DNA of 64,000 nucleotides from Shigella phage ESh33. This document shows positions 3,698 to 40,492 of this stretch, one piece after another; the first letter of the stretch is position 1, and every line of letters begins with the position of its first letter. Location of the stretch: the sequence record ON528743. The stretch is one strand, 5' to 3'. The notes below the pieces were generated by a model. The model was given only the letters and a program-made list of their open reading frames with translations, ran no database searches and had not been told where the DNA came from. A program made the translations under genes and the position numbers.

Positions 3698-4189
3698 TTA
3701 TTCCCAATAATCGAGAGCAAGAGTTACTTCAAAGGTTTGAATTTCATTGTTTGAATCCCAATCTAATTGAAGTTCACCCACGTTAGTAGGCCACAGACCT
3801 TTAATTTCAATTTCTTTTGTTACTGTTTTAGCGTCACGAGCATATTGACGAACGATAGCGCTCTTTTTATACTCTGCAGGTTTTCCACCAGTAATTTCGT
3901 TTCCTTGTCCCGCAGCAATGCTTTGCCAATCAACGAACTTCTGGCGAGCATCATGAGCTTCATCGTTCATTACTGTAACAGTCCAGTCATCGAATGTACG
4001 ATCGCCTGCTACGTTAATTTTACGGTTCATAAATCCGACTGGAATTTTTTCTACAATACCAGCTGGTAAAGCAGTGGCTTTACATTGGAACGTAAAATTT
4101 TGTCCAAGATAAGAAATTTCTACTTGGAATAAGTTAGGTCGAGCAAAATCACCAGATTCAAACGCTCGTGTTACATCATCTACAAACAT
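3698..4189 (-). CDS. 19: gp19 tail tube protein
   Basis: 163 aa; MFVDDVTRAFESGDFARPNLFQVEISYLGQNF matches recalled T4 gp19. Confidence 0.95.
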   Translation of the reverse strand: MFVDDVTRAFESGDFARPNLFQVEISYLGQNFTFQCKATALPAGIVEKIPVGFMNRKINVAGDRTFDDWTVTVMNDEAHDARQKFVDWQSIAAGQGNEITGGKPAEYKKSAIVRQYARDAKTVTKEIEIKGLWPTNVGELQLDWDSNNEIQTFEVTLALDYWE

Positions 4190-27485: not shown

Positions 27486-27938
27486 ATGGCATATTCTGGA
27501 AAATGGGTTCCTAAAAATATATCAAAGTATAGAGGTGACCCTAAAAAAATTACGTATAGATCAAATTGGGAAAAATTCTTTTTTGAATGGTTAGATAAAA
27601 ATCCAGAAATTATTGCATGGGGTAGTGAAACAGCAGTAATTCCTTATTTTTGTAATGCAGAAGGGAAAAAACGTAGATACTTCATGGATATTTGGATGAA
27701 AGATTCTTCTGGACAAGAATTTTTTATTGAAATAAAGCCTAAAAAAGAAACACAACCACCAGTTAAACCAGCACATCTAACAACTGCAGCGAAGAAAAGA
27801 TTTATGAATGAAATTTATACATATTCTGTTAACACCGATAAATGGAAAGCAGCGCAAGCTTTAGCTGAAAAGCGTGGAATAAAATTTAGAATTCTAACAG
27901 AAGATGGATTACGAGCTCTTGGCTTTAAGGGGGCATAA
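27486..27938 (+). CDS. 4: gp4 head completion protein
   Basis: 150 aa; [30 protein letters not shown]; length/sequence match T4 gp4. Confidence 0.9.
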
Positions 27939-28762
27939 TGGCTATTTTTCAAATAATTAATGAAAGCACTCCCCAAGTTCCAAAGGTTAAGCAATCATTA
28001 AACGAAAAGAAATGGATTCAGATAGGTCTTGAATATAAAAAGGCCAAAGCAAAAGGAATGGCAGGAAAGCAATTTGCTGAAGAAAGAGGAATCAAATACT
28101 CTACGTTTACTTCGGCAATGTCAAAATATGCTTCAGGAATTAAAACAGCTGAAAAGATTCAAAAGCTTGAATCAAAACCAATGAACAAGCTAAATAAGCA
28201 AGAAAGACAATTGCTTATGATAAATTCATTCAGACAAACATTGCGCGATAAAATTCGTAATGAAGGTGCAGCAATTAATAATAAAACCAGAAAATGGTTT
28301 GCTGAAACTATTAAGCAAGTAAAAGGACATAAAGTTGTTCGCCCGCAGCCGGGACGAATATATGCTTTTGCTTATGATGCTAAACACAAGGAAACTCTTC
28401 CTTACTGGGATAAATTTCCTTTGATAATTTACCTTGGTTTAGGTAAGCATAATTTAATGTACGGATTAAACCTGCACTATATTCCACCTAAAGCTCGTCA
28501 GCAATTTCTAGAAGAGCTTTTAAAGCAATATGCAAATACACCTACTATTACTAATAAAACGAAATTAAAAATTGATTGGAGTCAAGTGAAAGGATTTAGG
28601 GGTGCAGACCAAATGATTAAGGCATATATACCCGGTAATATTATGGGTAGCCTTGTTGAAATCGCCCCGAAAGACTGGGCGAACGTTGTGTTAATGCCAC
28701 TTCAGCAGTTCGTTTCAAAAGGAAAACGTTTCTCTGCAAACAAAGTCTGGTCAAATATCTAA
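27938..28762 (+). CDS. 2: gp2 DNA end protector protein
   Basis: 274 aa; synteny 4-2-3; length matches T4 gp2. Confidence 0.9.
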
Positions 28763-30932: not shown

Positions 30933-31217
30933 ATGAAAACTTATCAAGAATTCACTTCAACGACTAGCGCTTCTACTTTGACTGAAGCGACCCTTACTTC
31001 TGAAGTTATTAAAGCAAACAAAGGACGTGAAGGTAAACCGATGATTAGCCTGGTTGATGGCGAAGAAGTCAAAGGTACTGTTTACCTGGGTGATGGATGG
31101 TCCGCTAAGAAAGATGGTGCTACAATCGTTATCTCCCCTGCTGAAGAAACTGCTTTGTTTAAAGCCAAGCATATTTCAGTAGCTCAGCTTAAAATTATTG
31201 CAAAAAATCTTCTATAA
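30933..31217 (+). CDS. ipI: internal protein I (capsid-packaged, injected; anti-restriction in T4)
   Basis: 94 aa; N-terminal capsid targeting sequence MKTYQEF followed by LTE cleavage motif; position after 57B. Confidence 0.85.
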   Translation: MKTYQEFTSTTSASTLTEATLTSEVIKANKGREGKPMISLVDGEEVKGTVYLGDGWSAKKDGATIVISPAEETALFKAKHISVAQLKIIAKNLL

Positions 31218-31285: not shown

Positions 31286-31471
31286 ATGAAACGCTGTGAA
31301 TTAATTCGAAATGTTGCTATTGCAATTTCTGCTTCCGCTTTTAGTTTTTCAATGTTTGTTGGATTTATATGCGGATTATTAACTACAGCAGAAAATGTGT
31401 TTTCGCTTGTAGTAGCATTTTTAATTGGTTTAATCGCTATCGTTATGGATAAAATTTCTAAAGGTGAATAG
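31286..31471 (+). CDS. small hydrophobic (membrane) protein, 61 aa
   Basis: ATG 31286 after RBS GGAGAA; sequence MKRCELIRNVAIAISASAFSFSMFVGFICGLL is a predicted TM helix. Confidence 0.5.
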   Translation: MKRCELIRNVAIAISASAFSFSMFVGFICGLLTTAENVFSLVVAFLIGLIAIVMDKISKGE

Positions 31472-31472
31472 A

Positions 31473-31853
31473 ATGTATAAAGTGTACGCGGATTATCAGG
31501 CTAATCCATCTGAAAAGCCAGATTGCCAAATTGGATGGGCTCATGATACCCTGCTTGAAGCAGTAGATGCTGCTCAAAAATTAGGATATAGTTATGTAGA
31601 TATTGTTCAACCTGGCGGAACAGTTATTACTCTTGAAGAGTTTAATAATATTAAACCAAACTTTTTACTTTTTGCAGGTGATAATTATTATCCTCGTGGT
31701 GGATATGCTGATTTAATCGCGAAAGCCGCTACCGAAGATGAACTCCGTGACATTATCAAAGAAAATGAGAACAAACCAATGTATGGTTCTAATCGCTTTG
31801 ATTGGTGGCAAATTGTAAATGCCCACACTCATACTATTGTTGATGAAGGGTAA
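31473..31853 (+). CDS. hypothetical protein, 126 aa
   Basis: ATG 31473 after RBS AAAGGTGAA (track start is an upstream GTG). Confidence 0.55.
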   Translation: MYKVYADYQANPSEKPDCQIGWAHDTLLEAVDAAQKLGYSYVDIVQPGGTVITLEEFNNIKPNFLLFAGDNYYPRGGYADLIAKAATEDELRDIIKENENKPMYGSNRFDWWQIVNAHTHTIVDEG

Positions 31854-32665: not shown

Positions 32666-32752
32666 GAATTATTTGTTATTATTAACTCATACCGCACTGA
32701 TTAATACCCTCTATCATCAAGGGTTCTTATTTGAGAGCCTTTGTTAATAATT

Positions 32753-32824
32753 GGGAATTAGCCAAGTTGGTAAGGCACTGGATTTTGATTCCAGGATGCA
32801 AAGGTTCGAGTCCTTTATTCCCAG
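32753..32824 (+). tRNA. tRNA-Gln (UUG)
   Basis: Acceptor TGGGAAT/ATTCCCA; anticodon stem CTGGA/TCCAG, loop TTTTGAT; T-loop TTCGAGT. Confidence 0.85.
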
Positions 32825-32825
32825 C

Positions 32826-32912
32826 GCGAGAATGGTCAAATTGGTAAAGGCACAGCACTTAAAATGCTGCGGAATGATTTCCTTGTGGGTTCGAGTCCCA
32901 CTTCTCGCACCA
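32826..32912 (+). tRNA. tRNA-Leu (UAA)
   Basis: Acceptor GCGAGAA/TTCTCGC; anticodon loop CTTAAAA; long variable arm; 3' CCA encoded. Confidence 0.85.
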
Positions 32913-32917
32913 AATTT

Positions 32918-32991
<74 letters not shown>

Positions 32992-33001
32992 ATTTAATTT
33001 A

Positions 33002-33075
33002 CTCCGTGTAGCTCAGTTTGGTAGAGCGCCTGATTTGGGATCAGGAGGTCCAAGGTTCAAATCCTTGTATGGAGA
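33002..33075 (+). tRNA. tRNA-Pro (UGG)
   Basis: Acceptor CTCCGTG/TATGGAG (two G-U pairs); anticodon stem CCTGA/TCAGG, loop TTTGGGA; T-loop TTCAAAT. Confidence 0.8.
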
Positions 33076-33078
33076 CTG

Positions 33079-33167
33079 GAGGCGTGGCAGAGTGGTTTAA
33101 TGCACCGGTCTTGAAAACCGGCAGTCGCTCCGGCGACTCATAGGTTCAAATCCTATCGCCTCCGCCA
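33079..33167 (+). tRNA. tRNA-Ser (UGA)
   Basis: Acceptor GGAGGCG/CGCCTCC; anticodon loop CTTGAAA; long variable arm; 3' CCA. Confidence 0.85.
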
Positions 33168-33172
33168 GTTTT

Positions 33173-33248
33173 GCTGATTTAGCTCAATAGGTAGAGCAAC
33201 TCACTTGTAATGAGAAGGTCGGCGGTTCGATTCCGTCAATCAGCACCA
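33173..33248 (+). tRNA. tRNA-Thr (UGU)
   Basis: Acceptor GCTGATT/AATCAGC; anticodon loop CTTGTAA; T-loop TTCGATT; 3' CCA. Confidence 0.8.
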
Positions 33249-33249
33249 A

Positions 33250-33324
33250 GGCCCTGTAGCTGGAAGGTTCAAGCAAGCGACTCATAATCGCCAGATGGTG
33301 GTTCAATTCCACCCAGGGCCACCA
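33250..33324 (+). tRNA. tRNA-Ile (CAU; lysidine-type as in T4) or tRNA-Met
   Basis: Acceptor GGCCCTG/CAGGGCC; anticodon loop CTCATAA; T-loop TTCAATT; 3' CCA; Ile assignment by analogy to T4. Confidence 0.75.
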
Positions 33325-33330
33325 AATTAA

Positions 33331-33417
33331 GGGGAGTTATCCCGTAGAGGTAGCGGTGTGGACTGTAAATCCATTGTCATTGCGACTCGGGTGGTTCGAC
33401 TCCATCACTCCCCACCA
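33331..33417 (+). tRNA. tRNA-Tyr (GUA)
   Basis: Acceptor GGGGAGT/ACTCCCC; anticodon stem TGGA/TCCA, loop CTGTAAA; long variable arm; T-loop TTCGACT; 3' CCA. Confidence 0.75.
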
Positions 33418-33421
33418 ATTT

Positions 33422-33496
33422 GGATGTGTAGCTCAATGGCAGAGCGATCGCCTGTTAAGCGATTGGTTATAGGTTCGAATCCTATCACGTCCGCCA
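33422..33496 (+). tRNA. tRNA-Asn (GUU)
   Basis: Acceptor GGATGTG/CACGTCC; anticodon stem ATCGC/GCGAT, loop CTGTTAA; T-loop TTCGAAT; 3' CCA. Confidence 0.75.
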
Positions 33497-33501
33497 AATT
33501 T

Positions 33502-33612
33502 GTGACAACTGTCACATTAATATCTACTTGACGCGATTATAGGGGTTGAACTGATCACTCTTCTCTTAATTTCGTGTGAAGACATCATGATTGTTGGAGT
33601 AGATATTAATGT
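33502..33612 (+). repeat. structured tRNA spacer: palindrome GTGACAACTGTCAC plus 15-bp inverted repeat ACATTAATATCTACT / AGTAGATATTAATGT
   Basis: Left arm 33514-33528, right arm 33598-33612 (perfect reverse complements); right arm overlaps first bases of tRNA-His. Confidence 0.7.
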
Positions 33613-33686
33613 GGCCGTAGTTCAGTTGGTAGAACTCGAGATTGTGATTCTCGTAGTCATGGGTTCGACTCCCATCGGTCACCCCA
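33610..33686 (+). tRNA. tRNA-His (GUG)
   Basis: Acceptor GTGGCCG/CGGTCAC; anticodon stem CGAGA/TCTCG, loop TTGTGAT; T-loop TTCGACT; 3' CCA. Confidence 0.7.
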
Positions 33687-33690
33687 ATTA

Positions 33691-33766
33691 CGGGGCATAG
33701 CTCAGAAGGAAGAGCAAGGACCTTCTAAGTCCTAGGTCGTAGGTTCGATCCCTACTGCCTCGACCA
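33691..33766 (+). tRNA. tRNA-Arg (UCU)
   Basis: Acceptor CGGGGCA/TGCCTCG; anticodon stem AGGAC/GTCCT, loop CTTCTAA; T-loop TTCGATC; 3' CCA. Confidence 0.8.
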
Positions 33767-33784: not shown

Positions 33785-34135
33785 ATGAAAGGTAATGTTT
33801 ATTTAGTAGTTCATGATTTAACATTCTATTTTAATCATAATGATACTGCTATTTCTGAACGTGTAATTAATTTACTTTATCAGCATGCAGATTATGTTTA
33901 TGTTGAAAATGAATTTGGCCATTGGCAATTTCTCAAAAATCGTTCATTTGGTTTAGATGGTTACGAATACTTTGATCGTAAAGACCTTTTAGATACAATT
34001 CCATTATCTACACAATATCAAAATCATAAGTCTTTACATAAATGCCGGCTAATTCGAAATGCTGAATCTGCGTATGAAGCAATTGATTTATGGCGTAAAC
34101 GCCGTGAACAGATTGATGCTTTAAAAGAATATTAA
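33785..34135 (+). CDS. hypothetical protein, 116 aa
   Basis: ORF starting 19 nt after tRNA-Arg with RBS GAGGAAAAT. Confidence 0.5.
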   Translation: MKGNVYLVVHDLTFYFNHNDTAISERVINLLYQHADYVYVENEFGHWQFLKNRSFGLDGYEYFDRKDLLDTIPLSTQYQNHKSLHKCRLIRNAESAYEAIDLWRKRREQIDALKEY

Positions 34136-34139
34136 GAAA

Positions 34140-34475
34140 CCGGGTCGCTACCGGTAAGTCGTCGGACTGATGTTCCCTGTTTAAGGACTGGCATTAATAA
34201 ATCTTTATGTTTTGTTAATGTCCCCTTATATCACAGCAGAAACGGCGCACCGAATTATCGATTCGAGGAAATATCTTTGCCGTAAGCCGAGTAGCGTTTT
34301 TGACGGAACGTTCGGATATGGTCGAGATATGGCCTTTTAAAAATATTGAGTAGCGTCAACTGCTTGATAACCGGGTTCGAATCCCGGCGTTTCGTACAAA
34401 CACTTGCCTTAGCAGGTGGAACCCCGACAAGGTTGCCGCAAGGCTTAGCCCCAGCCGAAAGGTTGGGGCTTTTTA
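34140..34475 (+). ncRNA. putative structured stable RNA region (GC-rich, no ORF, tRNA-like T-arm hairpin), possibly T4 species 1/2 (rnaC/rnaD)-like
   Basis: No ORF of 60 aa or more on either strand; GC-rich vs flanks; CCGGGTTCGAATCCCGG at 34370-34386; hairpin CGAAT-TATCG-ATTCG at 34250-34264; ends in terminator. Confidence 0.35.
34446..34473 (+). terminator. intrinsic terminator (AGCCCCAGCC-GAAA-GGTTGGGGCT + T-run)
   Basis: 10-bp GC stem, GAAA tetraloop, TTTT. Confidence 0.7.
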
Positions 34476-34520
34476 GTATAAATAAGTATATTAAATCTAC
34501 AAATTAAAACAGGAAATAAG

Positions 34521-34994
34521 ATGAAATCATATACTCAATTTTTAAATGAAGCGGTGTTAAATGAAGCGTCTAGCACCGAAATTCAAGCTGTCGCAAAAGC
34601 AGCCATTGCAGCGGGTAAATATTCCTATAAAGATGCTTCTGATGAATCACGATTCCAATTTGCTCGCGACATGAAAGCAGAAGGATTTACGGGGAATGCT
34701 GTTAGTATGGCCTGGAAAAGTTTAGTTGCTACTGGCGCTGCTTTTGCAAAGGCTTCAGGTAAACCTGCTCCTAAAGCAGATCCTAAAGTCACACAAGAGA
34801 AAAATATCGTTAAAGGAATTATCTCCAAATATGAAGCTATCCTTAAAGAGCTTTTAGTAATCAAAACTGAAGGCCAAAAGCTAGCTCGTGCTTATAGTTT
34901 CAAAGATAACCCACATGTTCACTCTCTTGAGTATGTTGAAGACATCCAAAAAATTATTAAAGACCGCATTTGGTCTGCTAAACAAATCAAATAA
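34521..34994 (+). CDS. internal-protein-like capsid-targeted protein, 157 aa
   Basis: N-terminus MKSYTQFLNEAVLNEAS resembles the IP capsid targeting sequence with LNE cleavage motifs; bracketed by near-identical terminators. Confidence 0.6.
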   Translation: MKSYTQFLNEAVLNEASSTEIQAVAKAAIAAGKYSYKDASDESRFQFARDMKAEGFTGNAVSMAWKSLVATGAAFAKASGKPAPKADPKVTQEKNIVKGIISKYEAILKELLVIKTEGQKLARAYSFKDNPHVHSLEYVEDIQKIIKDRIWSAKQIK

Positions 34995-35001
34995 CATTCT
35001 T

Positions 35002-35029
35002 AGCCCTAGCCAAAAGGTTGGGGCTTTTT
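35002..35029 (+). terminator. intrinsic terminator (AGCCCTAGCC-AAAA-GGTTGGGGCT + T-run), near-duplicate of 34446-34473
   Basis: Same stem with two substitutions that keep pairing via G-U, then TTTTT. Confidence 0.7.
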
Positions 35030-35162
35030 GATATCTAGGCCTTTCCAGGCCTCTCTAGACATCGTTTAGTTTCTACCCTTTATAATATATTATCCTATCC
35101 TTTGATTTCCCCTCCCTGCCCTAGAATTCCCCAAAACTTTTTAAAAATTTTTTCACAAAACT

Positions 35163-35192
35163 GTTTACATCCTTGTCCTTCCATGGTACTAT
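35163..35192 (+). promoter_or_regulatory. early promoter (GTTTAC N18 TACTAT) with upstream A/T-rich element
   Basis: AAAAATTTTTTCACAAAACTGTTTACA ... GGTACTATACAACTATCAA; same cassette recurs at 50596 and 52297. Confidence 0.5.
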
Positions 35193-35235: not shown

Positions 35236-35499
35236 ATGGATAATTACGGTGAGCTGTTCAACTTCTTTATGAAATGTGTTTCAGAAGATTTCGGTCGTAC
35301 AGTGAATGATATTAAAGTTATCGGTCCTGACCATCCGATGTTTGAAACCTATGCAGTAATGGGTAATGAAGATGGTCAGTGGTATACTGTAAAGGTTGTG
35401 ATTAATATGTTCACTGCTGAAGGTTATGTTAAACTGTCTTCTAAAGTTTACCATGATAACGATGAAATCGCAGAAGAATATTTCAATAATATGAAATAA
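35236..35499 (+). CDS. hypothetical protein, 87 aa
   Basis: ATG 35236 five nt after GGAGA (MDNYGELFNFFMK...). Confidence 0.5.
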   Translation: MDNYGELFNFFMKCVSEDFGRTVNDIKVIGPDHPMFETYAVMGNEDGQWYTVKVVINMFTAEGYVKLSSKVYHDNDEIAEEYFNNMK

Positions 35500-38230: not shown

Positions 38231-39199
<969 letters not shown>

Positions 39200-39258: not shown

Positions 39259-39675
39259 ATGACTCGTATTAATTTGACTTTAGTATCTGAACTTGCTGAT
39301 CAGCATTTAATCGCAGAATACCGTGAATTGCCGCGTGTTTTTGGTATAGTTCGTAAACACTTGGCAAATGGTAAGCGGGTTAAAGATTTTAAAATATCTT
39401 CCGAGTTTATTTTAGGTTCTGGTCATGTTACGTTCTTTTACGATAAGTTAGAATTTTTGCGAAAGCGTCAATCAGACATTATAACGGAATGCTTAAAACG
39501 TGGGTTTAGTATAAAAGATACTGAAGTTCCTGACATCAGTGATATTCCAGCAGAATGGAAAAATGATTATAATCCATGCAAATCAGCTATTAAATTGAGT
39601 CAACAACGACTCGATGAAAAAATTTTAATGAAGCCACACTGGTACAAGTATTACGGCAAAAATATTTACATTTAA
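39259..39675 (+). CDS. denV: endonuclease V (pyrimidine-dimer DNA glycosylase)
   Basis: 138 aa; [29 protein letters not shown] matches T4 DenV. Confidence 0.92.
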
Positions 39676-39684
39676 AGGAAACAT

Positions 39685-40002
39685 ATGAAAACGTATAAAG
39701 AATTTATTGCAGAATCTGCCGCAGGACAACGTGTAGAAGGCGGTTATATCTGGATTGAACAAGTTGAGCCGCCAAGTCGCACTTCTACAGGTAAATGGAA
39801 AATCACTGTTGATGGTCCTGGCGGTAAACGTAGGACTCTTAAAGAAATTAACGGGTACTATGAAGAAGCTCTTTCTGACGCGGGTACTTATATGATGCAA
39901 ATCATGATTAAAAACCCAGAAAATCGTTTTGCGGCTAGAGTTTTCCGCCGTATTGGAAATAAGCTTTATGATGCATATTCTAAAAACTTCCCTAAAGAAT
40001 AA
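39685..40002 (+). CDS. internal protein (IPII/IPIII family), 105 aa
   Basis: N-terminal capsid targeting sequence MKTYKEFIAE; which T4 IP it corresponds to is not resolved. Confidence 0.7.
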   Translation: MKTYKEFIAESAAGQRVEGGYIWIEQVEPPSRTSTGKWKITVDGPGGKRRTLKEINGYYEEALSDAGTYMMQIMIKNPENRFAARVFRRIGNKLYDAYSKNFPKE

Positions 40003-40018
40003 AAATTAAAGGAAACAC

Positions 40019-40492
40019 ATGAAAACATATCAAGAATTTATTACTGAAGCAGCTATTAATTCTCAAATTATTGCTGAATCTTTTACTGATCTTTTGAAAT
40101 TTAAAAAAGGTCAAAAAATCACTGCTGTATTGGATGATGGTACAGAAGTTGAGATGGATGTACAAGGATATAATTATGCAGTAGATGGAAAACTGTATAA
40201 TAAATCTCATGCTAAATTTGATTCATTTGACGACTTTGTTAATGCAGTTGAAGATGAAAAAACTCGTCGATCCATTGCAACTGGTGATGCTAAGGTTCTT
40301 ATGGCACATGGTCATGAACGCATTCGCGCTAAACAGAATAAAATGGGTGAAGATAATTTTGCATTAGTTGGTTATCAATCTGGTAAACAAACTTATGGTT
40401 ATCAGCGTACTGCTACCATGTATAACAAAAATGGTAAAATCGCTTTCGTGAATAGTAAAGGTTCTGTTCAGTACGTCAAATCATTCAAATAA
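40019..40492 (+). CDS. internal protein (IPII/IPIII family), 157 aa
   Basis: N-terminal capsid targeting sequence MKTYQEFITEAAINSQIIAE. Confidence 0.7.
   Translation: MKTYQEFITEAAINSQIIAESFTDLLKFKKGQKITAVLDDGTEVEMDVQGYNYAVDGKLYNKSHAKFDSFDDFVNAVEDEKTRRSIATGDAKVLMAHGHERIRAKQNKMGEDNFALVGYQSGKQTYGYQRTATMYNKNGKIAFVNSKGSVQYVKSFK

Follow-up and report, generated by a model that had tools for sequence, protein, structure and literature searches.

The window analysed here is a stretch of 64,000 nucleotides from the genome of Shigella phage ESh33 (record ON528743), and our subject is a small transcription unit within it, built around an open reading frame (ORF) of 157 codons at 34521-34994 that we call ORF157. 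The features of the locus described below lie on the plus strand and are located by their position in the window. The 951 nt compared around the ORF place the window with the Tequatroviruses of the RB32/RB51/AR1 type: its closest match is Shigella phage SHBML-50-1 with 99.3 % identity over 951 nt, and RB32, RB51 and AR1 show 95-97 %. ORF157 is the gene RB32ORF133c, falls into PHROG 2280 and encodes a protein that begins with MKSYTQFLNEAVLNEASS, making it a candidate gene for a phage internal protein (IP). We consider it likely that the segment from 34444 to 35034 is a self-contained late cassette that encodes a new IP family (PHROG 2280), occupies a third IP locus and is exchanged by recombination between its terminator repeats.

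The unit is composed of a promoter motif, a Shine-Dalgarno-like sequence, ORF157 and a terminator, and it is inserted between the terminator of a stable-RNA unit and an early promoter. Because it is self-contained and placed in this way, its gain or loss leaves the transcription of its neighbours intact. The left boundary is the first copy of a direct repeat (34444-34479), which holds terminator T1: a stem-loop at 34447-34470 (AGCCCCAGCC-GAAA-GGTTGGGGCT) followed by a T-run at 34471-34475, with an RNA folding free energy (dG) of -20.6 kcal/mol. The late-promoter consensus TATAAATA occupies 34477-34484, 36 nt before the ATG of ORF157, and a Shine-Dalgarno-like AGGAAA can be read from the sequence at 34511-34516, 4 nt before the ATG. 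The right boundary is the second copy of the repeat (34999-35034) with terminator T2, whose stem-loop is at 35002-35025 (AGCCCTAGCC-AAAA-GGTTGGGGCT) and T-run at 35026-35030 (RNA dG -17.5 kcal/mol). Both terminators have a 10-bp G/C-rich stem, a 4-nt loop and a T5 run. The early promoter of the next gene, e.8, lies 138 nt beyond the downstream terminator copy.

T1 terminates the tRNA/rnaD/rnaC unit; T4 has a single orthologous copy, which record X03016 annotates as 'pot. terminator'. T1 and T2 are the two best terminator-like sites of the 32-42 kb region that was scanned. Searching the 64 kb with the 24-nt terminator pattern and allowing 3 mismatches, we found no further copy, and none appeared in 100 shuffles. 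The similarity extends past the hairpins and T-runs on both sides, resulting in a 36-nt direct repeat with 89 % identity and a spacing of 555 nt. The RefSeq record of RB32 (NC_008515.1) already notes that RB32ORF133c is 'flanked by 34 bp imperfect direct repeat'; the annotation of RB51 calls the same gene RB32ORF132c, a mismatch in numbering between the records.

An earlier note on the window had described an ORF at 34521-34994 with an IP-like leader, flanked by two near-identical terminators. We find the ORF as described, with a leader that resembles a capsid targeting sequence (CTS), that ends in L-x-E|A and that is kept in distant homologues. Both terminators are also present, within the 36-nt repeat, and only the coordinate of the first was off by one base (34447, not 34446). 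The assignment of T1 to the tRNA/rnaD/rnaC unit, the late-promoter motif belonging to the unit, a second cassette with a CTS and the repeat annotation of RB32 go beyond that description.

ORF157 matches 511 phage records by tblastn, among them isolates of E. coli, Shigella, Salmonella, Yersinia and Klebsiella. The identity is at least 80 % for 381 of these records (Tequatrovirus), 60-80 % for 103 (examples being Mosigvirus) and below 60 % for 27 (Klebsiella phages). The ratio of nonsynonymous to synonymous substitutions (dN/dS) against the RB32, JK1 and Mosigvirus alleles is 0.06-0.11. This ratio and the 511 matching records indicate that ORF157 is a real gene. Overall the family ranges over Tequatrovirus, Mosigvirus, Jiaodavirus and metagenomic T4-like phages. 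A profile search of 1.84 billion representative proteins returned 13 relatives, all apparently ORFs of T4-like phages, and no tie to any characterised family. Where their context is available, the distant relatives are situated just after tRNA genes and between two stem-loops, with xATAAATA about 35 nt upstream; in L007 and L009, distant homologues of metagenomic origin, the spacing of this motif is the same as that of TATAAATA in the window.

IPs are non-essential, highly basic proteins that are cut once beside the leader, after Glu, by the prohead protease (PMC8442874; PMC5694885; PMC3012670). The CTS has been defined with the T4 sequence MKTYQEFIAE (PMC8442874). The first ten residues of ORF157, MKSYTQFLNE, share M1, K2, Y4, F7 and E10 with it and differ conservatively at S/T, Q/E and L/I. 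The leader codons (34521-34565) specify MKSYTQFLNE|AVLNE|, with two L-x-E motifs, and at the end of the leader Ala comes after L-x-E, as it does in IPII and IPIII, which gives the potential sites LNE10|A and LNE15|A. The doubling corresponds to a 5-codon duplication at 34542-34568, where TTAAATGAAGCG occurs twice, 15 nt apart, encoding LNEA-V-LNEA with its two successive L-x-E|A cleavage motifs. The extra 5 residues are missing in Mosigvirus homologues. Cleavage by gp21 after Glu has been described at the ITE and LTE sites of T4 Alt, and several cleavage motifs per propeptide are known for T4 and giant-phage head proteins (PMC5694885).

This type of start is rare in the window. MK[ST]Y.[EQ]F begins 4 of the 576 Met-initiated ORF candidates of at least 40 aa, namely ORF157, IPI and two ORFs after denV; the expectation by chance is about 0.001, a back-of-envelope inference rather than a value computed by a tool. 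Homologues of 24-49 % identity retain F-x-[E/D/S]-F-[L/V]-x-E ahead of the conserved domain, with drift of the leader residues. Their leaders include MLKFNEFLAE|G, MINFSDFLNE|G, MKSFSSFLNE|G and MKFKEFLAE|A, and L-x-E|[A/G/S/Q] is retained. We also looked for co-variation of the leader with the CTS consensus of the same phage: in Jiaodavirus the other IPs keep MKTY[QK]EF and the ORF157 homologue has MKFKEFLAE.

The composition of the protein and the signal ahead of its gene are of the kind expected for an IP. Mature ORF157 is predicted to have 142-147 aa, about 15.5-16 kDa, an isoelectric point (pI) of 9.5-9.6 and 14 % Lys, which is inside the range of T4 IPI*, IPII* and IPIII* (pI 9.0-9.65, 13-16 % Lys). 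A pI of at least 9 together with at least 11 % Lys is found in just 7 of the 94 non-overlapping ORFs of the window. The TATAAATA octamer is invariant in 7 further Tequatrovirus genomes (GiZh, U115, RB32, FriedrichMiescher, slur03, JK1 and vB_SsoM_113) and is also kept in the Klebsiella Jiaodavirus phiKp_22, while the bases right after it vary (AAGTA, TTAG, TAGT, GATG, CAGT, TCAT). The same motif stands ahead of gene e, at 38671 and 38684. The ORF157 gene is missing from T4, T2, T6 and PST and is therefore dispensable. Judged from these sequence features, ORF157 is a candidate internal protein that is well supported in silico.

Comparison of the locus between genomes revealed four allelic states. 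The empty state, found in T4, T2L, T6 and PST, reads rnaC-TTAGCCCCGACCGAAAGGTTGGGGCTTTTT-GGTATCTAAGCC and on to e.8, with one terminator copy left. Over the same region T4 has 396 bp and the window 951 bp, and the difference is exactly the 555-nt repeat unit. In state A (the window, GiZh, RB32 and others) the terminator is followed by AGTATAAATA, ORF157, the second terminator and GATATCTAGGCC. State B (G4498, FL12) has the terminator, then AGTTTGAATC, an ORF of 187 aa, CCCTATC-TAAAT-GATAGGGCTTTTT and finally GGTATCTAGGCC. State A+B (U115, F25, CCU7, vB_SsoM_113) carries the A and B units in tandem. All sequence switches in A, B and A+B take place at GGGGCTTTTT| or GGGCTTTTT|, the 3' end of the terminator T-run, and cassette B is bounded by the 9-nt GGGCTTTTT.

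The 951-nt query matches 702 records, with 403 of the 702 covering at least 80 % of it. Read as orders of magnitude, given the RefSeq/GenBank duplicates in the collection, the A family is present in 511 records, B in 165 and the A-to-B junction in 128. Subtraction gives about 250-275 records with A only, about 128 with A+B and about 37 with B only; the rest are empty, divergent Mosigvirus-type alleles, or fragments. States also differ within species: JK23 (state A; L015) and G4498 (state B; L004) both belong to Tequatrovirus gee4498, and the A alleles of FriedrichMiescher and JK1, both Tequatrovirus teqdroes (L014 and L017), are about 20 % apart in protein sequence. Different alleles within one species indicate recent replacement. 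In CCU7, a Mosigvirus-type T1 and A allele are joined with cassette B, a cassette specific to Tequatrovirus. The earlier note had proposed that the paired terminators could permit cassette exchange, and this is supported: the ORF and its terminator pair vary among relatives, in four states with breakpoints at the terminators. Loss, gain and replacement of the cassette are directly visible by genome comparison.

One alternative explanation is that T1 and T2 are alike by functional convergence or by an old duplication, play no role in exchange, and that presence or absence of the gene reflects one ancient deletion. Both are indeed strong canonical terminators, and the Jiaodavirus homologue lies between two dissimilar stem-loops, showing that the gene can persist without the repeat. 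The deletion of the T4 type, however, takes out exactly one repeat unit, the 36-nt repeat runs past the hairpin and T-run on both sides, and there are four allelic states, some of them differing within one species. The variants of the inner 5' stem arm (CCGACC, CCAGCC, CTAGCC, CTAACC, CTGACC and CCTTCC) also shift between T1 and T2 among genomes. CCAGCC is in T1 of the window and of JK1 and in T2 of RB32; CCGACC is in T1 of most genomes and in T2 of U115, JK23, slur03 and JK1; and CCTTCC is in both T1 and T2 of Mosigvirus, which has its own matched pair. With this pattern we regard convergence or a single ancient deletion as highly improbable.

Alternatively, the polymorphism could be driven mainly by a homing endonuclease in the adjacent tRNA region through co-conversion of the SegB type, and not by recombination between terminator repeats. 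T4 has segB about 0.9 kb upstream together with an empty site, the window has no segB, and, according to a reference as cited in PMC4122927, SegB promotes the preferred inheritance of the T4 tRNA region. Against this, the cassette encodes no nuclease and the breakpoints are at the terminator repeat rather than at a cleavage site. FL12, which apparently has a segB-sized feature upstream of tRNA-Arg, carries B, so that the state is not simply tied to segB. Furthermore, co-conversion would spread alleles between genomes, not create them. An origin of the polymorphism mainly in homing thus seems very unlikely to us, and recombination at the terminator repeats is the explanation that we retain.

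The unit found in state B provides a second line of evidence on the nature of the site. Its product, RB14ORF136, has 187 aa and begins MKTYAEFLTE|AAKLPS, a leader nearer to the canonical CTS than that of ORF157. The predicted mature protein would start at A11 (AAKLPSEADLTK) and have a pI of 9.5. Cassette B is found in Tequatrovirus only, has its own terminator (CCCTATC-TAAAT-GATAGGG) and carries an [A/G]ATAAATA motif instead of TATAAATA. The cluster of RB14ORF136 contains 151 members, all hypothetical except for one evidently spurious label. Like ORF157, the protein has the same insertion point, a CTS leader, a basic pI and the same predicted domain order, and it matches PHROG 2280 from end to end (E 2e-53).

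The relationship between the A and B proteins is distant. BLASTP of A against B aligns the leader alone, and B gave no significant match to Klebsiella-type or distant A homologues. With hhalign the C-terminal hairpins align (A 92-157 with B 95-175, E 2e-4, probability 45 %; IKDRIWSAKQIK versus IKNRINTASKLK). An AlphaFold model of ORF157, built on an 8-sequence alignment and with a predicted local distance difference test (pLDDT) score of 75, has a low-confidence leader helix, an N-domain of 3 helices (18-71), a disordered linker rich in K, P and A (72-87) and a long C-terminal helical hairpin (88-154). The model of RB14ORF136, of low confidence (pLDDT 60), has a leader helix, a 3-helix domain, a disordered linker and a helical hairpin in the same order as in A. 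In our view the two proteins are probably distant paralogues. Whatever their kinship, two different genes with a targeting leader occur at one site, which is difficult to account for if the site is not an IP locus.

Several results weigh against an internal protein at this site. The ORF157 leader is identical to the canonical CTS at just 5 of 10 positions, and K2 or Y4 is missing from some homologue leaders (MLKFNEFLAE, MINFSDFLNE). TATAAATA is found inside genes too, with 18 copies in the window versus about 10 expected. PHROG 2280 is labelled 'unknown function', and the named members that we read in the 216-member cluster of ORF157 are all hypothetical, none being annotated as an IP. Searching the literature by the ORF name and for the mass spectrometry of Sf21/22, fPS-90, fHe-Yen9-01 and Tequatrovirus, we found no usable virion proteome naming ORF157. 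Pfam and NCBIfam have no model for either ORF157 or the cassette B protein, a PDB sequence profile search with ORF157 gave nothing at E up to 1, and Foldseek against PDB and BFVD matched the ORF157 model to its own family only; none of these searches gave a fold or sequence homologue pointing to a target. Homology between A and B rests on the shared PHROG plus the hhalign match of 45 % probability. Finally, the strong conservation of the N-domain from Tequatrovirus to Klebsiella phages together with the low dN/dS is less reminiscent of an arms race than the hypervariable classical IPs are.

The partial CTS identity, the lack of an IP annotation in databases and the fruitless search for a virion proteome naming ORF157 would suit a protein that is not packaged at all. 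On that explanation ORF157 is a late or accessory cytoplasmic protein, and its CTS-like start is either coincidental or a module shared for translation initiation or recombination. Chance is very unlikely, however, since among the ORFs of the window only those of IP type have the MK[ST]Y.[EQ]F start. Homologues of 24-49 % identity still carry the leader with its L-x-E|small-residue end, the unrelated-looking cassette B carries an even more canonical CTS at the same site, and the late-promoter motif and the basic composition suit an IP. We therefore judge an unpackaged protein to be improbable.

The candidate internal protein ORF157 resembles T4 IPI-III in having a short N-terminal CTS that ends in L/I-x-E and then Ala, and in being small, basic, Lys-rich and non-essential. 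Their genes all lie in variable loci beside the tRNA-e region. Beyond the leader, in contrast, there is no similarity of sequence or fold (17-20 % global identity), and ORF157 has its own late-promoter motif and terminator at the rnaC-e.8 locus, which is empty in T4, T2 and T6. Packaging and inhibition of GmrSD have been shown for Ip1-3 (PMC12373910), whereas for ORF157 packaging is a prediction and inhibition of GmrSD an analogy. The likeness extends to the variant IPs (Ip4-Ip12 and others, including Ip10, IpIV and Bas37_0260), which are also recognised by their leader, have unrelated mature parts and are exchanged between close relatives. These variants occupy two described loci (57B-trna.4 and e/denV), whereas ORF157 lies between rnaC and e.8; the ORF157 family is also more widely conserved, and in none of the records read is it named an IP.

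The literature describes two IP loci. Arbiol et al. (2010) count more than 30 IP variants and state that IP genes are absent outside two loci in T-even genomes (PMC2839356), and Silas et al. (2025) also speak of two. On the basis of the sequence comparisons above, we propose the rnaC-e.8 site as a candidate third IP locus; residence at one of the described loci is a matter of convention about position and is not demanded by the mechanism. It is invisible in T4, T2 and T6 because these phages carry the empty allele. Repoila et al. are said to have recognised IPs by their leader in 1994 and to have reported Ip4-Ip12 and other variants; ORF157 may already be counted in the variant lists of Repoila 1994 or Comeau 2007. 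We also considered whether the 'five IP differences from T4' of phage PST include the rnaC-e.8 locus, which they do not, the site being empty in PST.

In its mode of exchange the cassette resembles the promoter(early)-stem-loop (PeSL) cassettes of Arbiol et al. 2010 and Comeau et al. 2014. There too, repeated G/C-rich stem-loop terminators flank small accessory ORFs, recombination between the repeats explains indels and replacements between close relatives with breakpoints inside the repeats, and transcriptional insulation makes the modules portable. The difference is that the repeat found here consists of the terminator and a few flanking bases, without the early sigma-70-like promoter half that defines PeSL: the motif that follows T1 is that of a late promoter, and the repeat does not include the early promoter of e.8. 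Both sides of our interpretation are accordingly of known kinds, an IP and the shuffling of modules by regulatory repeats, and no new mechanism is involved.

We made some additional observations on the stem-loops of distant relatives. Those flanking the distant homologues (L007:640-780 and 1300-1420; L009:3130-3280 and 3800-3920; L011:2186-2300) are followed by a T-run and GGGTATCTA(G/C), to be compared with TTTTTGGTATCTAAG in T4, and GGTATCTA after the terminators is conserved across distant loci. In the L007, L009 and L011 loci a GTTTAC early promoter is found within about 30 nt of the downstream stem-loop, a compact PeSL-like unit. A metagenomic protein of 94 aa from a Logan contig (P0013) fuses the N-terminal part of a trna.3-like ORF (31464-31853 in the window) to the last 30 residues of ORF157 (34905-34994). 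Such a fusion implies a natural deletion of about 3 kb that took with it the tRNA/rnaC region in its entirety and the greater part of the IP-like gene.

How the cassette might work can be outlined from the known IPs. ORF157 would be transcribed late, during prohead assembly, and its N-terminal 10-15 residues would act as a CTS that brings the protein into the scaffolding core. Cleavage there by gp21, after LNE10 and/or LNE15, would yield a basic protein of about 15.5 kDa that stays in the head and is injected with the DNA into the next host. At the level of the genome, recombination between the 34-36-bp copies would delete, insert or replace the unit, within the same genome, with a co-infecting genome or by means of a one-copy circle. 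Precedents exist for such events: homology of less than 50 bp is said to suffice for recombination in T4, and mini-circles of PeSL-flanked ORFs arise in RB49 and phi1 (PMC2839356). Recombination at the terminator copies would explain why T-even phages show the empty, A, B and A+B alleles.

By analogy with other IPs, the injected protein could block a defence that the host directs at incoming DNA; a modification-dependent type IV restriction enzyme would be the most plausible target. IPIII is reportedly required on ECOR17. Ip1, Ip2 and Ip3 are inhibitors of GmrSD type IV restriction enzymes, each directed at a different one (PMC12373910). The same behaviour is described for a further Ip, encoded at the ipI locus (bioRxiv 10.1101/2025.11.20.689424), and the Ip Bas37_0260 is required on a K-12 strain that carries type IV systems. 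These parallels make an anti-defence role of the ORF157 protein plausible.

It is conceivable that ORF157 is packaged through its CTS and has no specific anti-defence target, serving as a basic filler of the scaffolding core or as a balance to the charge of the DNA. The protein is basic and Lys-rich like other IPs, and IP lysines contact DNA phosphates according to a review of the T4 head (PMC3012670). A dN/dS of about 0.1 and an N-domain conserved across genera suit a housekeeping function better than an arms race, and no enzyme-like or inhibitor-like homologue is found for the fold, which is all-helical and partly disordered. The gene is nevertheless dispensable, being missing in T4, T2, T6 and PST, and its patchy gain, loss and swapping within species are typical of accessory host-range genes. 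Moreover, the three T4 IPs were once deemed fillers and turned out to be specific inhibitors of type IV restriction (PMC12373910). We hold a mere filler to be rather unlikely. Given the conservation across genera and the purifying selection, the target of ORF157 may be a conserved one, or its role may be structural. We put forward more tentatively, rating it as somewhat short of an even chance, a fuller proposal: rnaC-e.8 would be a third IP locus where the PHROG 2280 family, in two divergent forms, moves as terminator-recombining cassettes and disarms a defence outside the scope of Ip1-3, either another type IV variant or a more conserved host function.

The gene order around the cassette is 57B, ipI, trna.x ORFs, 11 tRNA genes, a 116-aa ORF, rnaD, rnaC, the candidate cassette and e.8, and continues to the right of e.8 through nudE to e (38705-39199), denV (39259-39675, 77 % identical to T4 denV) and two IP genes. 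The 11 genes of the tRNA cluster (32752-33766) add Met/Ile(CAT), Tyr, Asn and His to the T4 set of 8. The homing-endonuclease gene segB is missing inside this cluster, where T4 and PST have one. The 116-aa ORF (33785-34135; PHROG 3355, unknown function) separates tRNA-Arg from rnaD, which are neighbours in T4; it is also annotated in U115, G4498 and vB_SsoM_113 and constitutes another small insertion in the stable-RNA cluster. It does not replace rnaD, which the alignment places at 34135-34251.

Of the two small stable RNAs at the end of the tRNA transcription unit, rnaD (34135-34251; T4 species 2) is identical to T4 rnaD at 103 of 116 positions, and rnaC (34258-34396; T4 species 1) to T4 rnaC at 136 of 139. 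In GiZh, rnaC plus its terminator is annotated at the same place. An Rfam search of 32-36 kb in permissive evalue mode matched the tRNAs only, leaving rnaC, rnaD and the terminators without a match; these old phage RNAs have no curated Rfam model. To the right of the cassette lies an early promoter of the T4 type (GTTTACA-N17-TACTAT, 35164-35192), in a region that recurs at other early promoters of the window. It is followed by e.8 (35236-35499), the conserved right flank, which is 99 % identical to T4 e.8 and stands directly after the single terminator in T4.

The two known IP loci are both occupied in the window. At the first, ipI (30933-31217; phrog_4363, 'internal virion protein') encodes a protein 91 % identical to T4 IPI. 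Its leader (30933-30986) is MKTYQEFTSTTSASTLTE, 18 aa, versus MKTFKEFTSTTTPVSTITE, 19 aa, in T4, and the mature IPI* is nearly identical; the propeptide is evolving faster than the mature inhibitor. The second locus is downstream of denV and contains an Ip10-like gene and ipIV; its T4 counterpart lies between e and denV and contains ipIII and ipII (L006:1917-2916). The Ip10-like gene (39685-40002, 105 aa) clusters with Ip10 of phage Pol and is called an internal head protein in some records. The ipIV gene (40019-40492, 157 aa; Pfam DUF7412, PHROG 'internal virion protein') is identical to PST ipIV at 155 of 157 residues. The earlier note had reported these two as further CTS-bearing proteins, which they are, and they were already known as Ip10 and IpIV. 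A CTS-like start with I-T-E|A, MAIFEFITEAAE, also begins the phiKp_22 homologue (L021:10706-11533) of gp2, the DNA end protector; the gp2 of the window is at 27938-28762.

These findings bear on how T-even phages meet the defences of their hosts. IPs act before any phage gene is expressed, and between 2022 and 2025 they were shown to decide the infection of wild E. coli by T-even phages, GmrSD variants being countered by Ip1-3 and a K-12 type IV system by Bas37_0260. The present family is found in 511 records, is labelled 'hypothetical' in every named member read and is absent from the model phages T4, T2 and T6. The A and B proteins would be two naturally dispensable candidate injected effectors for panels of defence systems, and the candidate rnaC-e.8 site would correct the picture of two IP loci. 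With base-precise junctions, the empty, A, B and A+B alleles offer a clean natural example of terminator repeats swapping late-gene modules.

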